40,492 bases of DNA from the UHGV virus genome UHGV-0071542; one strand, given 5' to 3'. The notes under the pieces were generated by a model that saw nothing but the letters and a program-made list of their open reading frames with translations, ran no database searches and was not told the DNA's origin. Below, piece after piece: positions 20,157 to 25,367 of this stretch. The first letter of the stretch is position 1. The number at the start of each line of letters is the position of its first letter. This DNA comes from a virus. Position numbers and translations under genes: made by a program.

Positions 20157-20453
20157 TCACTCCTGTTCACTGGCCTCTTTGGCCATCTTCAAATACTGTT
20201 CAGGGCAATGCGCCATAACGCGCTGAAACAGTTCCAGCGCCAGATTGCGTTGCCCCTCATTAAATGCCATTGCCATAGCGTCCATCGGTGAGATAGCGGA
20301 AAACACACGGCCTTTCTCCAGCACCGACCAGACAACGCGACGCCCCTGTTCACTGCTCATGACAAAGCGAATGTCATCAATTTCACGCTGCGCCATGTCA
20401 CGTTGCTTACGGGCGTTTTCTTCTTTCAGTTGATCGTCTTCGTAATCTGTCAT
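20157..20453 (-). CDS. Hypothetical head-assembly protein (98 aa)
   Basis: Coupled ORF between portal and scaffold. Confidence 0.4.
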   Translation of the reverse strand: MTDYEDDQLKEENARKQRDMAQREIDDIRFVMSSEQGRRVVWSVLEKGRVFSAISPMDAMAMAFNEGQRNLALELFQRVMAHCPEQYLKMAKEASEQE

Positions 20454-22129
20454 TGTGATTGCCCACCCTGACCACTAACTGCATTCGCCATAGCTGACAA
20501 AACACTCGGATCCGAAGTTTTAGCTTCGCTTAGCGTCTTGGCACCCTGTGCCGCCGCCATCCCCATCGCCATCATTTGTTGCTGCTGTTGCTGCTGTGCC
20601 CGTTGCTGGCGAGCATGCTCAACCTGTTCCTGCGGAACAATGACGGTTGGAGACACTCCGGACATATCAGCGAATGCATCGATCGCCTGATCAACGTTGA
20701 GTTTGTCGAGAGCTTCTGGTTTCGCTTGCGCAAGTTGACCAATGAAGTTAACCGTGGACGCCAGACTGGACAGGCCGATAGACTTCTGCGCCTGAGCCAT
20801 GACGGAAATGTATTCGACCTTCAGGGGCATGCCTTCCATCGCGTCAGGCGGTGGCGGCAGCGTGTTTTTACGCACCATCATCGAGAAAGCGCGGTCAATG
20901 AGAGGATTAAGACATTCGTCGTTCAGACGCTCCAGAACCGGCCCCAACATCAGAAGTTTTTCTTCTTTCATTTCGATCACCGCTTCAACAGGCATCGAGC
21001 GGGTATTGATGTTCTGCAACATCATGAACAGATCGACAAAGTAGGCGCTGTTAATGATTTGACGAGTGTCCTGAATGTCTGCCACCAAATCTGCTGTACT
21101 GGGGTTAACCAGATAAGCAGGCCTGAAGCCATCCTGACCAGTAATCTGATCGATATACGTGATGTCGCCAGGAAGAAGGGAGGCGCGCTGATTCTTGAGG
21201 GAAGTCGGAGCAACCATCGGCGGATTGGTGGCTTTATCAATCAACTGCGACTTGCGCTTCTGGAGAAGCTGCAATGCCTTAACAGGTCCAAGCGCCAGCA
21301 TACCCGGGCATGATGATCCATAAACATCTTCGCCGTTAACTTCCCAGCGCGGAGCCATAATTGGAAACTCATCGAATCCGGACTCACGCAACAACTTGTC
21401 GTTATCGCCACCAACCTCGTAATAAACCGATTTGAATGGCTTGTTCTTGCTATCCAGCTTCGATGTATCGCGGTCAATGTTCGGGTAAACCGAATGCATC
21501 ACTTCAATCCACTTCTCGTAGGTGCCGCTTTCCCACATGCTTTTTACGGATTCGCTGACGTTATTTAGCCCGAACTCCTGAACAAGCTGACGAACAGTCA
21601 TAGAGAACTTGCGAAAACAGGTGTCCACACTGCCACGAGGTGAGTTAGCCAGGTAGTAACTGCCTATCGGGAATGGCATTGTGCGAATGATGTCCTCGTC
21701 ATCCTCCAGCACTGCCATTGCACCAGTGCTGTATGTGCCGAGGCTTCCGTATAACTGCGGCAGCGACTGATAGAGATTCGACTTATTGAACATATCGTTC
21801 ATGCGGTTCTGCACCGCCTCAAGCCACAACTTAACAGGGCCATAATCCATCATTTCAGGATCTGGCGTAGCCAGGCGAAACCACGGACGCGCGGGGCTTG
21901 TGATGCCTGACATCATGCCGCTGGCGAGAGTGCGCGCCGCCATAGTCCCGGTCGAATCAATAATGCGTGTATTGCGTCGATCGTTACGGTTGACCTCAGA
22001 AGTCAGAAAGCGGGAACCACGTGGGTTGATGTAATCACTCAACTCGCGCCAGTGCGGCTCGAACGACTGACGCTCGCTTTCAAGTTGTGCGAACTGTTTG
22101 TTCAATCGCTCTTTAGTTGTTTCCGCCAT
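20450..22129 (-). CDS. Portal (head-to-tail connector) protein
   Basis: 559 aa with poly-Gln C-terminal tail; first large gene of the head module. Confidence 0.75.
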   Translation of the reverse strand: MAETTKERLNKQFAQLESERQSFEPHWRELSDYINPRGSRFLTSEVNRNDRRNTRIIDSTGTMAARTLASGMMSGITSPARPWFRLATPDPEMMDYGPVKLWLEAVQNRMNDMFNKSNLYQSLPQLYGSLGTYSTGAMAVLEDDEDIIRTMPFPIGSYYLANSPRGSVDTCFRKFSMTVRQLVQEFGLNNVSESVKSMWESGTYEKWIEVMHSVYPNIDRDTSKLDSKNKPFKSVYYEVGGDNDKLLRESGFDEFPIMAPRWEVNGEDVYGSSCPGMLALGPVKALQLLQKRKSQLIDKATNPPMVAPTSLKNQRASLLPGDITYIDQITGQDGFRPAYLVNPSTADLVADIQDTRQIINSAYFVDLFMMLQNINTRSMPVEAVIEMKEEKLLMLGPVLERLNDECLNPLIDRAFSMMVRKNTLPPPPDAMEGMPLKVEYISVMAQAQKSIGLSSLASTVNFIGQLAQAKPEALDKLNVDQAIDAFADMSGVSPTVIVPQEQVEHARQQRAQQQQQQQMMAMGMAAAQGAKTLSEAKTSDPSVLSAMANAVSGQGGQSQ

Positions 22130-22143
22130 TTCAATGACTCCGG

Positions 22144-22350
22144 TTACTGACCAAGCAGCGTTTTACCGCTGGTATTAGCGGTTGATGTGTCGCCCTGAGA
22201 ACCGGTAAGCAGCGTAGAACTACGACCAGCAGCAGCGCGACGGCGACGAGTTTCTTCGTCGCGGGCATCAACAACGGCGGCATCCTGCTCCTGTGGTGCT
22301 GCCTGAACTTCTGGTGTTGCAGGCACTGATGGTGAGCTACCCATGCACAT
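22144..22350 (-). CDS. Small low-complexity protein upstream of portal (68 aa)
   Basis: RBS GGAG 9 nt upstream of ATG; the alternative overlapping ORF 22131..22370 is less plausible. Confidence 0.35.
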   Translation of the reverse strand: MCMGSSPSVPATPEVQAAPQEQDAAVVDARDEETRRRRAAAGRSSTLLTGSQGDTSTANTSGKTLLGQ

Positions 22351-22440
22351 ATCAATGACTCCGTACGCAATTAAATTATTACCAATTTAACCACATATGA
22401 TTTATTTATCGTAGATAGTTGACATTTAACGCACAAATTA

Positions 22441-22455
22441 TTACCTTTCAGGTAA
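22441..22455. promoter_or_regulatory. Operator-like palindrome TTACCTTTCAGGTAA next to a TTGACA -35 hexamer
   Basis: Identical to the site at 5516-5530; TTGACA at 22419-22424. Confidence 0.5.
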
Positions 22456-22777
22456 GCAAAGAGTTCATTCCGGTTATTAACCTGACTGGCTTGTCGTTAA
22501 ATTGAACAGGTGGAGTGAGCTTTTATTTTGAGCAGTACGGCGTATGGCACATGCGCCGATAGCGGTCTGGATACGTTTAAGGGGCACCCTCCCTTGCTCG
22601 GGCAAACGAACCAGGTAGCCGGAATGTGCAAGTCGAGCGGTTTTATTCCGCGCACGGGGATTCACCATCCCGGCGATTCGGTGTGACGCCTCGGAAGAGA
22701 CGAGGGTACAACGATGAGAGCATTTATGGAGCCGCGACAAAGTGTGGTGCCTTAACAGGCTAAGTGCTCTCAGCGTT

Positions 22778-22854
22778 GTGGCATTAGCTCAGTTGGACAG
22801 AGCAACCGCCTTCTAAGCGGTTGGTCGCAGGTTCGAATCCTGCATGCCACGCCA
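22778..22854 (+). tRNA. tRNA-Arg (anticodon UCU), phage-encoded
   Basis: 77 nt; 7-bp acceptor stem GTGGCAT/ATGCCAC; D-arm GCTC..GAGC; anticodon loop CTTCTAA; T-arm GCAGG-TTCGAAT-CCTGC; 3' GCCA. Confidence 0.85.
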
Positions 22855-22897
22855 GAATCACGCCTAAGGACCGTGATACCAGAAGTTCCAGGTGCTT

Positions 22898-22939
22898 GGC
22901 GGTGATAGTTTCCCTTGAAGGACTATCACCGCCCTTTTT
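22898..22939 (+). terminator. Rho-independent terminator downstream of tRNA
   Basis: 12-bp perfect stem GGCGGTGATAGT/ACTATCACCGCC followed by CTTTTT. Confidence 0.7.
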
Positions 22940-23017
22940 ACAGCAGGACGCCATTGCGATGACTTCATGCTGTAAACCCGTGCAGCCACGGAAGGCATAA
23001 CTCATTGCTTCCAGTTC

Positions 23018-23041
23018 GCCCGGTTCGCCGGGCATTTTTTT
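23018..23041 (+). terminator. Second rho-independent terminator
   Basis: Hairpin GCCCGG-TTCG-CCGGGC followed by ATTTTTTT. Confidence 0.6.
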
Positions 23042-23057
23042 GCTTGATGACCGCAAA

Positions 23058-23072
23058 TTACCTTAAAGGTAT
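23058..23072. promoter_or_regulatory. Operator-like palindrome TTACCTTAAAGGTAT overlapping the moron promoter
   Basis: Lies between TTGATG (23044-23049) and TATAAT (23070-23075). Confidence 0.45.
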
Positions 23073-23076
23073 AATC

Positions 23077-23895
23077 ATGAAAAACTTCAAGGTAATTAGC
23101 ATGTTTGAATCGTTCAAAGAGCTGTTTTTATCTACTGCCAATACTGCCGTGAATCGAGCCAAAAACCCTGTGCTTGGTGCTTTTGTTATGTCCTGGTGCG
23201 CCTTCAACTGGAAATCAATTCTTTATCTATTTTTTAGCAAATCAAACATAATAGATAAAATTTCATATATCTCAGATAACAGCACATGGAAAACTGTTAT
23301 GTTTTATCCATGCTTATCTGTAATTGCTATCTGCTGCCTATTACCATGGGTAAACAATATCATTAACGTATGGCAAGCAAAGCCTCTTGATAATAATGAC
23401 TCAATCGAAAATCACCTGAAGGCAAGAAAAATCCAGCGTGAAACAAGACTGCAGAGGTTATTGGCTAAAAAAGATGTTACATACGACAAAGTTAAGACTG
23501 GCGCGGAAAAAGACATCCAAGAGATGAAAGAAGAGATTATTCGATCAAAGAATAGTATGGGGGAATTGACTGCCGAGTTGAAAGCTAAAGATGACGAATT
23601 GAGATCCGCCAGTGCTCAGTTAGCAGCTCTAAATCATTCATTAAAAGAGATATCGGAAACTCTTGGAAGAATGAATGAGGCATATAAGACCCTCCAAAAT
23701 GATTTCGACGAATACAAACTCAAATACCCTGAAAAATCTCAAATAAAAAGCCTTGCACTTGGCAACGGCCAAACAATTAGCAACTTTTTGGAGCAACACA
23801 ACTTATCCGGATTAAAATCTGGTAAGCCAAACGTTTTTAATAACTTTGGTGTTCTATCTGGATTATCAGGTTTCGAGGATAAAAATAAAGACTAA
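23077..23895 (+). CDS. AT-rich moron: membrane-anchored (2 TM) coiled-coil protein; candidate superinfection-exclusion/abortive-infection factor
   Basis: Low GC versus neighbours; two hydrophobic helices then long Lys/Glu-rich coiled coil; several AGA/AGG codons; stop overlaps terL stop convergently; true start may be ATG at 23101. Confidence 0.55.
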   Translation: MKNFKVISMFESFKELFLSTANTAVNRAKNPVLGAFVMSWCAFNWKSILYLFFSKSNIIDKISYISDNSTWKTVMFYPCLSVIAICCLLPWVNNIINVWQAKPLDNNDSIENHLKARKIQRETRLQRLLAKKDVTYDKVKTGAEKDIQEMKEEIIRSKNSMGELTAELKAKDDELRSASAQLAALNHSLKEISETLGRMNEAYKTLQNDFDEYKLKYPEKSQIKSLALGNGQTISNFLEQHNLSGLKSGKPNVFNNFGVLSGLSGFEDKNKD

Positions 23896-25367
23896 GCATA
23901 TGGATCGTACTCGGTAAGCGCCTTGCCTTGCTGGTTCTGCTGCCCGGGAAGTCGCAGGCGCTTTGACACCGGGAAAGCAAACGTCAGCAGTAGCGCATCG
24001 CCTTTACCAGGCGAACGCCCAAGTCGTTCTTTGATATCTTCCTTCGGTTCGATAACGATTTTACCGTCCACGCGAACTTTGTACTCTGCCGCCGACAGAT
24101 CGTCCGCTGTTTCCTGGTCATCCAGCATCCCGCCCAACCTCAGCCATGTCTTGCATGAGTTGAACATCTCCCCGCGCTTATTGAGCATCTGCGGGTCAGT
24201 AGACGCGCCGCCGAACGGAACAAGTTGCCAAGTACGCCCCCAGCCATCACCGATTGACTTCAAACCGGTTCCGTAACCGAAGTCGATGAACACCGCGTCA
24301 GCCTGATACTGGTCTTCAAAGTCAGCGATACGCTTCGCCATAATCAGATCGTCAGTGGTCTTGTTGCCAGTCCACAGCACCTTACTGTGTAGCCCCTGCC
24401 GCAGGTATATCACCGCGTCATCAACGCCTGAATATGCCGGGTCAACACCGATTATCACCGGAGCATGCGCCACCTGCGCAGCGGTTACCACCCGTTTCAT
24501 TGCCTCATCAGTAAGACCGGTAGGGATAAACTGCAATTCAGATGCATCAGGGAATATGCCGCGCACACGGATTTTAACGAAGTCGCTGTCTTCCCCGTAG
24601 TCATCAACCCATTTCTGCAACTGCTGTTTGTTAGTGCCTTCCACCGTCCGGCTGTCAATCTGCGCAGTTTTCCAGCGGTGTTTATATTTGCGGAAACATT
24701 CGCGGAAACGCCCGGTGTTACGTGTAGGGTTTCCGAACGCCACCCAGATAATCTCAGTGTCTTCGTCCGTAAGCGCACCCTCAGCAACTTCCCACACCAG
24801 ATCCGCAATGTTCGACGCTTCATCGAATACCACGATGATGCGTTTGCGCTCGTTGTGTAGTCCGGCGAATGCCTCAGTGTTGTGCTCAGACCAGGGGATT
24901 GCGTCAGCTCGCCACCGCTTGTCGTGCCCAGGATCATTGCTGTACATCGCGGTAGCGGTACAGGTAAACCAGTCTTTCGTGATAGCAAGGTTCGACCACT
25001 TGATAATTTCCGGCCAGGTCTTCGTTCGTAGCTGGTTGTCGGTGTTGGCGGTCACCACGACCTTACAATCCTCGCAAGTGGACATGCCCCAGTTGATCAG
25101 CATTGAGATGAATGCGGATTTACCAATACCGTGACCAGAAGCACGTGCCAGCATAAGCGGCTGATAACGCGTCTCTGGATTCTGCAGGTGATCACGTATC
25201 TCTCGGAACGCATCGGCCTGCCACTGACGTGGGCCGGTAGCATGTGCCAGTTCAGTCCCCTCTTCCCCCCACGGGAACGCATAGAGGGCATAGCCAAGCG
25301 GATCGTGAGTGAACCCTGCAATATCCTCGATTAACTGCTCTTCAGGAGATAACGCTGTATCTGTCAC
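23892..25367 (-). CDS. Terminase large subunit
   Basis: 491 aa with ATPase-like N-terminus and nuclease-like C-terminus; coupled downstream of terminase small subunit. Confidence 0.8.
   Translation of the reverse strand: MTDTALSPEEQLIEDIAGFTHDPLGYALYAFPWGEEGTELAHATGPRQWQADAFREIRDHLQNPETRYQPLMLARASGHGIGKSAFISMLINWGMSTCEDCKVVVTANTDNQLRTKTWPEIIKWSNLAITKDWFTCTATAMYSNDPGHDKRWRADAIPWSEHNTEAFAGLHNERKRIIVVFDEASNIADLVWEVAEGALTDEDTEIIWVAFGNPTRNTGRFRECFRKYKHRWKTAQIDSRTVEGTNKQQLQKWVDDYGEDSDFVKIRVRGIFPDASELQFIPTGLTDEAMKRVVTAAQVAHAPVIIGVDPAYSGVDDAVIYLRQGLHSKVLWTGNKTTDDLIMAKRIADFEDQYQADAVFIDFGYGTGLKSIGDGWGRTWQLVPFGGASTDPQMLNKRGEMFNSCKTWLRLGGMLDDQETADDLSAAEYKVRVDGKIVIEPKEDIKERLGRSPGKGDALLLTFAFPVSKRLRLPGQQNQQGKALTEYDPYA

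Follow-up and report, generated by a model that had tools for sequence, protein, structure and literature searches.

What does the plus strand encode between the portal gene and the terL gene of the window analysed here, where both of these genes lie on the minus strand? The window is the whole stretch of 40,492 nucleotides (nt) from the virus genome UHGV-0071542, a phiV10/epsilon15-like podovirus of the genus Uetakevirus. BLAST places its positions 22350-23041 at 98-99% identity with phiV10, TL-2011b and the Escherichia coli O157 typing phages 9 and 10. The original prediction, made from the sequence alone, had described a tRNA-Arg in this interval and considered the hairpin-rich ~320 bp upstream of it to be either a long tRNA leader or an independent small RNA. 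We found that positions 22535-22777 are a member of a conserved structured RNA family, ~243 nt in length, consisting of a pseudoknotted core and an additional hairpin P6. As far as sequence comparison can tell, the core and P6 together are a widespread and previously undescribed phage RNA family.

The core covers 174 nt on the plus strand (22535-22708) and was folded using alignment A2 of 34 diverse homologues, in which invariant blocks alternate with hairpins of changing length and sequence. It starts with the first hairpin, helix P1 (22538-43 / 22553-58), whose loop GCACAU pairs with a downstream AUGUGC to form the pseudoknot PK1 (22547-52 / 22624-29). Helix P2 (22567-70 / 22611-14) closes a variable arm and is followed by an invariant 19-mer, GGUAGCCGGAAUGUGCAAG (22614-32), to which the AUGUGC of PK1 belongs. 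The rest of the core consists of the variable hairpin P3 (22637-51), helix P4 (22657-71) with the loop UUCACCA, a second pseudoknot PK2 (22663-66 / 22680-83) formed by CACC and GGUG, and helix P5 (22689-22705) with the loop GAAGAGA. Downstream of the core, hairpin P6 (22709-22777, plus strand; CAACGAUGAGAGCA...UGCUCUCAGCGUUG) has a variable tip, and its last pair overlaps G1 of the tRNA.

Across the 34 homologues, standard base pairs were observed in 95.2% of the alignment cells, versus 26-48% when the partners are slid by 1-3 columns. Two-sided changes occur at 13 of the 29 pairs, and none of 500 shuffles reached the observed values. The covarying helices are P1, P2, P4 and P5, and PK2 shows a compensatory change from CACC/GGUG to AACC/GGUU. 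PK1 is invariant in the aligned set and hence cannot be tested by covariation; RNAalifold independently predicted PK1, P2, P4 and P5. P6 is closed by CAAC/GUUG in all 42 distinct homologues, while its stems vary in a compensatory manner, e.g. UAAGAG/CUCUUU and GAGAGCGCAC/GUGCGCUC. The plus strand is the folded strand because many of the pairs are G-U, which the opposite strand would turn into A-C mismatches, and the folding-energy z-scores are -4.2 and -2.8 for the plus and minus strands, respectively. The covariance model R1 detects a single copy in the window, with 139 bits. We conclude that the core fold is real and strand-specific. Two of the three hairpins named in the original prediction are conserved helices, namely CGGCG/CGCCG (P1) and CCTCG/CGAGG (P5). 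The third, CGGAAT/ATTCCG, can form here but is not conserved: CGGAAT is part of the 19-mer that reaches the P1 loop through its AUGUGC, and ATTCCG lies within the variable P3.

The region upstream of the tRNA does not encode a protein. Its sole open reading frame (ORF), 87 amino acids (aa) with a TTG start at 22477-22740 on the minus strand, has no Pfam match. The core lengths of the homologues are distributed 14/10/10 modulo 3, with insertions and deletions that are not multiples of three. These frame-breaking lengths and the family-less ORF show that the region is not a gene, and we rejected the protein-coding reading altogether since no frame is preserved, no Pfam family matches and the substitutions preserve base pairs. 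It had indeed been predicted that these ~320 bp contain no credible ORF. This ORF lies antisense to the structured RNA and another one, of 90 aa (22784-23056, minus strand), antisense to the tRNA; equivalent ORFs are annotated as hypothetical proteins in phiV10 (PhiV10p04), SPN1S and mEp460. Both ORF calls are probably spurious, and several deposited records have dubious "hypothetical protein" ORFs over the element.

Nor does the element belong to a catalogued RNA family. The scan against Rfam 15 recovered the tRNA and gave no family for 22440-22777, either at the gathering score or at E <= 10, the remaining hits being sub-threshold noise. In eight related loci, neither the element nor the tRNA-like module described below matched any Rfam 15 family. 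We found the element nowhere in the literature, literal-sequence searches included, although King et al. may mention it.

The family is distributed over quite different phages. BLAST matches to 22537-22780, with 70-84% identity, were found in the lambdoid phages mEp460, cdtI and 2H10, in Stx2c and some Stx2a converting phages, in P1, P7, D6, SJ46 and RCS47, and in phages of Klebsiella, Salmonella and Enterobacter. At least 86 phage records carry the family, and copies are present in 1840 of 5426 complete E. coli genomes (34%), where none of them is annotated. An exact 16-mer of the element occurs in at least 120 IMG/VR contigs. With one genome searched per species, the 19-mer was found in 24 stretches, 22 from Enterobacterales and two from metagenome-assembled genomes labelled Oscillospiraceae (L144) and Bacillota (L156). 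L156 has a full-length copy (162 bits), as does the Stenotrophomonas phage BUCT708 (L011, 2441-2592), whose flanking genes look lambdoid, while L144 has only a fragment (15.7 bits). These non-enterobacterial records may reflect host misassignment or contamination. Phage epsilon15 (L005, 2548-2638), which lacks a tRNA, retains only the leader, P1 and the start of P2 (R1 score of 35.6 bits). In its record, the leader and P1 stretch is labelled an RNase III processing site, and by its sequence this stretch looks like a deletion remnant of the element.

We observed the element in three genomic contexts, Uetakevirus, lambdoid and P1-like, all of which are repressor-controlled early operons, and it is always co-oriented with the downstream genes. 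In the Uetakeviruses it lies behind an operator-bearing promoter-like region and is followed by the tRNA-Arg. The early-promoter-like region of the window (22419-22455, plus strand) is near-invariant across five Uetakeviruses. Reading its sequence, we identified a -35 hexamer TTGACA (22419-22424), separated by a 17-nt spacer from a weak -10-like TACCTT (22442-22447) that falls below the cut-off of our consensus scan. A palindrome TTACCT-N3-AGGTAA (22441-22455) overlaps this -10-like hexamer, and the same palindrome is labelled as a repressor (binding) site in the record of phage epsilon15. The TTGACA hexamer and the operator-like palindrome expected upstream of the structured region are hence both present, and we take 22419-22455 to be a putative promoter. 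Between the predicted transcription start and the core there is a leader of ~80 nt (22456-22534, plus strand), conserved only among Uetakeviruses (alignment A3). The interval ~22454-22939 would then form one plus-strand transcription unit made of RNA genes only and driven by an operator-controlled early promoter.

In 38 of 64 distinct lambdoid cases, an S24/HTH repressor is the ORF that precedes the element on its strand; the repressor and the element are separated by a median of 153 nt. These repressors are only 17-28% identical to each other and therefore represent many immunity types. The mEp460 locus runs from cI and its terminator through OL-like operators matching those of OR to a PL-like promoter TTGCAT-17-TATCTT, with the element starting ~50 nt after this promoter. 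For other immunity types, good promoter matches (e.g. TTGACA-16-CATAAT) are located 34-57 nt upstream of helix P1. This placement of repressors and promoters makes the lambdoid element the 5' leader of the early-left (PL) transcript. We found no N-like gene among the 96 distinct first downstream ORFs, nor in the annotated early-left operons. In phage P1 the element begins 15 nt after a tRNA gene, upstream of ban, in the ban operon controlled by the C1 repressor. A terminator is located within 600 nt downstream of the element in 75 of 111 contexts, versus 53 of 212 random windows of the same loci; this enrichment is supportive only, because the loci are related and the count is not phylogenetically independent.

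These contexts bear on what the element is to its tRNA. We considered tRNA adjacency as a universal trait and rejected it, as only about half of the loci have a tRNA. Of the two possibilities raised before, an independent small RNA comes closer to our results than a mere tRNA leader, since most lambdoid loci have no tRNA; the tRNA of the P1 locus (trnI) is a different one, tRNA-Ile, and lies upstream of the element.

In the lambdoid loci, a cloverleaf-like module takes the slot of the tRNA-Arg of the window. This tRNA-like module, aligned from mEp460 (L002, 3238-3375) and 16 other loci (alignment A6), reads from 5' to 3' as an acceptor-like strand GUGGUGA, an AU dinucleotide, a D-arm-like hairpin GCGCA-GGCUGA-UGCGC, a variable middle, a T-arm-like hairpin CCGG-AGAUCAGCA-CCGG and an acceptor-like 3' strand (U/C)CACCAC. 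Over the 17 distinct sequences, 94.1% of the cells are paired and two-sided changes were seen at seven pairs. Covariation is present in both the D-like and the T-like stem, and the complementary loops GCUGA/UCAGC show one compensatory change in their loop-loop pairing; the acceptor-like stem is uninformative because it is invariant. Neither ARAGORN nor Rfam calls the module a tRNA. RNase P recognizes an acceptor stem stacked on the T-arm, with two nucleotides before the D-arm, and the module has a stack of acceptor-like and T-arm-like stems, a D-arm-like hairpin two nucleotides after the acceptor strand, and a D loop in contact with the T loop. Its geometry thus matches that of an RNase P substrate, and it may be cleaved as one.

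The unit ends in a 3' tail (22857-22939, plus strand) with the architecture of a small RNA, i.e. a hairpin AUCACG-CCUAAGGAC-CGUGAU (22857-22877) joined by a single-stranded linker to an intrinsic terminator UUGGCGGUGAUAGU...ACUAUCACCGCCCUUUUU (22898-22939, plus strand). The predicted strong terminator with a 12-bp stem on the 3' side of the tRNA was confirmed as a perfect stem, GGCGGTGATAGT/ACTATCACCGCC, followed by CTTTTT, and was also found by the consensus scan. In 20 distinct contexts, the tail hairpin and a UUGGCGG...CCGCCCUUUUU terminator come after the tRNA or its tRNA-like counterpart. Promoter, core, P6, tRNA or tRNA mimic, small-RNA-like tail with terminator, and protein genes thus succeed one another in a conserved order.

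A related arrangement was seen in ST64B (L164, 7238-8054, minus strand), which has mEp460-type OL operators, P6 and the tRNA-like closing stem GUUGUGGUG...CACCACAAC. In place of the core, however, it has another 5' domain, ~330 nt in length, with pieces resembling GUAGCC and GUGCAAGC, and a search with R1 on this named N-less lambdoid phage returned nothing. The ST64B leader may represent a sister family within a wider superfamily of PL-leader RNAs. C4 and isrK RNAs, scoring above the Rfam gathering thresholds, lie elsewhere in these two phages (mEp460, L002, 706-894, minus strand; ST64B, L164, 10005-10193, plus strand), within the part of the rightward operon devoted to regulators and antirepressors, and are unrelated to the element.

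What could such an RNA do at the start of an early operon? The lambdoid carriers have no N, yet a conserved terminator lies between PL and their early-left genes, so some antitermination device is needed. How N-less lambdoid phages read through their early terminators was left open by a 2025 analysis (PMC12315714). Phages HK022 and HK639 also have no N, and their put RNAs, located just downstream of PL, make the polymerase resistant to terminators (PMC9378689). In the structure solved by cryogenic electron microscopy, U28 of put inserts into the zinc-binding domain of the polymerase beta-prime subunit (PMC9378689). The record of HK639 annotates a "putL-like antiterminator RNA".

We searched 3.07 Mb of gathered sequence, on both strands, for the motif ACGGCG-N5-20-CATGCG[TC]CG, of which 0.02 matches are expected by chance. 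It was found only at 80 element starts and at six of the six put RNAs gathered. Stem I of put (ACGGCGCG...AAACCAUGCGUCGG) shares with P1 of the element (ACGGCGUAUGGCACAUGCGUCG) the frame ACGGCG...CAUGCGUCG. In the stretch beside the 3' strand of this hairpin, put and the element are identical at 10 of 11 positions, including the AUG of put U28, and both hold an invariant GGCG further on. Like put, the lambdoid element is part of the nascent early transcript just past PL in a phage with no N and with terminators downstream; in the window the corresponding promoter is a predicted one. An RNA lying between promoter and terminator and carrying the put-specific hairpin is, by analogy, the obvious candidate for the antitermination device. 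The window moron gene (described below) lies behind two terminators, and hence the same antitermination logic applies to it. Since the element shares the position, the genomic logic and the first hairpin of put, its function may be of the same kind, RNA-mediated processive antitermination.

We therefore favour, tentatively and at a little less than an even chance, an enlarged put-like processive antiterminator that RNase P would release by cutting at the tRNA. From sequence and analogy, this model predicts that the promoter is active, that the RNA binds the polymerase and causes antitermination, and that RNase P cleaves the transcript. The RNA would fold while emerging from RNA polymerase, and its put-like first hairpin would bind the polymerase and render it resistant to terminators. 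In the window, transcription would then pass the terminator of the unit and a second intrinsic terminator (23018-23041, plus strand; GCCCGGUUCGCCGGGC then AUUUUUUU) just upstream of the moron start, and run into the downstream gene or genes, with the moron as the presumed beneficiary. In the N-less lambdoid phages the read-through would extend over the whole early-left operon. RNase P would cleave at the 5' end of the tRNA, between U22777 and G22778, or at the tRNA-like module in the lambdoid phages, and release the RNA. Put RNA is still active once severed from the transcript (PMC9378689), so that excision by RNase P would be compatible with antitermination.

Several observations weigh against this antitermination model. 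Beyond the first hairpin the element is unlike put and is 2-3 times larger: put has ~70 nt (126 nt as annotated in HK639) and two stem-loops, whereas the element has ~243 nt and, besides P6, five helices with two pseudoknots. In put, the stem I loop finds its pairing partner at the 5' end, while the P1 loop of the element pairs with the downstream invariant AUGUGC. No equivalent of stem II was found in the element, so the two-stem-loop architecture of ~70 nt is not shared. R1 gives no real match in HK022 and HK639, and BLAST searches of putL and of the HK639 putL-like RNA against phages miss the element. The copy in phage P1 is ~2.3 kb away from the annotated promoter, with no terminator predicted before ban, and in the window the read-through transcript would enter terL in antisense orientation. 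The window promoter has a weak -10 hexamer, the terminator enrichment is partly phylogenetic, and the flanking tRNA or tRNA-like module and terminator would also fit an excised RNA acting in trans. The two RNAs also differ in that the element is coupled to a tRNA or tRNA-like module, and in that put is rare (~24 phage records) while the element is common. Two further comparisons with known antiterminators were dropped. A similarity to stem II (GGCG.UUC.GG..G.AC) was too weak, these bases being better explained by PK2 with its compensatory change, and the "M3-like RNA" of HK639 proved unrelated.

The strongest alternative, unlikely in our judgement but a serious one, is the excised RNA just mentioned. 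RNase P and tRNA 3' processing would in this case split the primary transcript into three products, namely a stable structured RNA, the tRNA or its tRNA-like substitute, and a small RNA that carries the terminator. During early infection, the structured RNA would bind some conserved factor of the host or the phage, e.g. to serve as a decoy, to inhibit a host defence or to regulate. The element abuts a tRNA or tRNA-like module in all three contexts and the unit ends in its own terminator, as one would expect. The invariant 19-mer and the conserved loops suggest a conserved binding partner, and anti-defence genes of the Tad2-like type are found among the neighbouring cargo of Uetakeviruses. Noncoding RNAs matured by RNase P are known in phages, e.g. 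the C4 RNA of P1 and P7. This alternative leaves unexplained, however, both the put-specific hairpin motif and the strict placement between early promoter and terminator in N-less phages, and we found no candidate target. The trans-acting and antiterminator models are compatible and can coexist.

It is improbable that the element serves simply as a tRNA leader or as a processing or stability element of the mRNA, such as a site for RNase III or RNase E or a stabiliser at the 5' end. The epsilon15 record does assign RNase III processing to its leader and P1, and in the window the element directly precedes the tRNA. Yet the epsilon15 stretch is a mere remnant at 35.6 bits and most copies of the element have no tRNA, and four covarying helices, a variable hairpin, two pseudoknots and an invariant 19-mer maintained over three phage lineages far exceed what a processing site needs. 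Still less probable is a riboswitch-like sensor, which would respond to a small molecule or to the neighbouring tRNA bound by its core, set the read-through of the terminator and so couple early phage transcription to host physiology. Conserved junctions and pseudoknots give the core an aptamer-like architecture with a terminator downstream, and alternative structures are possible as GUUG has two potential partners, one inside P6 and the other, CACCACAAC, at the 3' end of the tRNA-like module. A transcriptional riboswitch, however, has its aptamer adjoining the terminator and controls genes of one ligand. Here the distance to the terminator varies (125-600 nt), P6 and a tRNA intervene and the core is not overlapped, the downstream genes are heterogeneous and tied to no single metabolite, and the core matches no aptamer class in Rfam 15. 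Finally, a cryptic protein gene or a single-stranded-DNA element such as a priming site is hardly credible: the 87-aa minus-strand ORF exists, the mEp460 record places a hypothetical protein over its copy and the P1 copy lies upstream of a DnaB-like helicase gene, but that ORF has neither a Pfam match nor a frame kept by the indels of the homologues, the substitutions keep base pairs including G-U pairs possible on the plus strand only, and the element is always co-directional and behind promoters in phages with unrelated replication systems.

The remaining features of the locus are more conventional. The tRNA-Arg(UCU) (22778-22854, plus strand) has 77 nt with an encoded 3' CCA and is the only tRNA that ARAGORN calls in the whole window (anticodon TCT). 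The Rfam tRNA model (RF00005) gives 73.3 bits against a gathering score of 29, in agreement with the well-formed 77-nt plus-strand tRNA proposed from sequence reading, and related GenBank records already annotate the tRNA-Arg gene. Its position between portal and terL likewise holds: the portal gene is located at 20450-22129 on the minus strand (Pfam Head-tail_con, E = 5e-187) and the terL homologue, matching phiV10 terL, at 23892-25367 on the minus strand. This tRNA is genuine yet ordinary and previously known.

The moron is a plus-strand cargo gene (23077-23895) with an ATG at 23077, encoding 272 aa with a predicted coiled-coil, and has a GC content of 36.5% compared to 49% for the window. 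It shows only weak, sub-threshold matches to SMC-like coiled-coil regions (DndD, LmuB and JetC). It overlaps the terL stop convergently, and a TATAAT (23070-23075) lies directly before its ATG. It had been suggested that the tRNA supports translation of the AGA and AGG codons of the moron. Such codons are indeed frequent in it (four AGA and one AGG among eight Arg codons), with AGA at 14.7 per 1000 codons; a usage specific to the moron did not hold up, as AGA is used throughout the phage, at 6.5 per 1000 codons in 15 large ORFs. The frequency in E. coli K-12 is ~2 per 1000 codons. Given the phage-wide use of AGA, the tRNA-Arg is plausibly a general codon-supply tRNA. The cargo slot itself, i.e. 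the first plus-strand ORF after the tRNA in Uetakeviruses (alignment A5), is highly variable, with nine distinct Phage_gp49_66 ORFs and seven distinct Tad2-like ones among others. The Tad2-like domain is a Thoeris anti-defence domain, which suggests that this slot holds early-expressed accessory or anti-defence genes.

Processive antitermination by RNA only has so far been described for put and the eps-associated RNA (EAR), both of them small systems. If the element is an antiterminator, this mechanism would turn from a rarity into a mainstream one among enterobacterial prophages, given a much larger and pseudoknotted relative of put in a third of the complete E. coli genomes, and its new RNA-polymerase-binding fold would be a target for structural work. 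The element is a concrete candidate for how N-less lambdoid phages pass their early terminators. Should it act in trans instead, it would still be a common and well-supported structured RNA family missed by current annotation.

How does the element compare with other known RNAs? EAR of Bacillus, the other RNA-only processive antiterminator, reads through distant terminators as a structured cis-acting RNA inside an operon, which is similar to the role proposed here. EAR and the element differ in host range and have no similarity in sequence or structure, Rfam 15 giving no match. ROOL and GOLLD are large structured prophage RNAs near tRNAs, ~580-800 nt in size and found mostly in Firmicutes and relatives. 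They resemble the element in being phage-borne, often adjacent to a tRNA and of complex fold with unknown function, but they are far larger, and their Rfam 15 models do not match the element. The tail of the window (22887-22934) resembles the 5' half of DicF, a small RNA of the Qin prophage, and its UUGGCGG...CCGCCCUUUUU terminator, and both are located in prophage early operons. The tail is nevertheless not a member of the DicF family (RF00039), scoring 16.9 bits against a gathering score of 48 with E = 0.09 in a 101-nt search. The element-bearing ban operon of phage P1 has an annotated "dicF-like region" (L004, 769-870).

The closest parallel for the junction with the tRNA is provided by the eukaryotic MALAT1-mascRNA and by the C4 RNA of phages P1 and P7, the latter matured by RNase P, both of which are processed through an adjacent tRNA or tRNA-like structure. 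In the same way the element abuts a tRNA in the window and a cloverleaf-like module in the lambdoid phages. The C4 model of Rfam matches elsewhere in mEp460 and ST64B but not in the element, whose cleavage is a predicted one. We speculate, as a doubtful extension, that the element defines a new class of large polymerase-riding RNAs, in which a pseudoknotted body is built around a put-like hairpin and a built-in tRNA or tRNA mimic recruits RNase P for its release. If so, it would supply the early antitermination device that is missing so far from many N-less lambdoid prophages, Stx2c and some Stx2a phages among them, and phage P1 as well as the phiV10-like O157 typing phages 9 and 10 would carry a regulator that has gone unnoticed. 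Bacteria would then have a counterpart to the processing of MALAT1-mascRNA, one that is coupled to processive antitermination.

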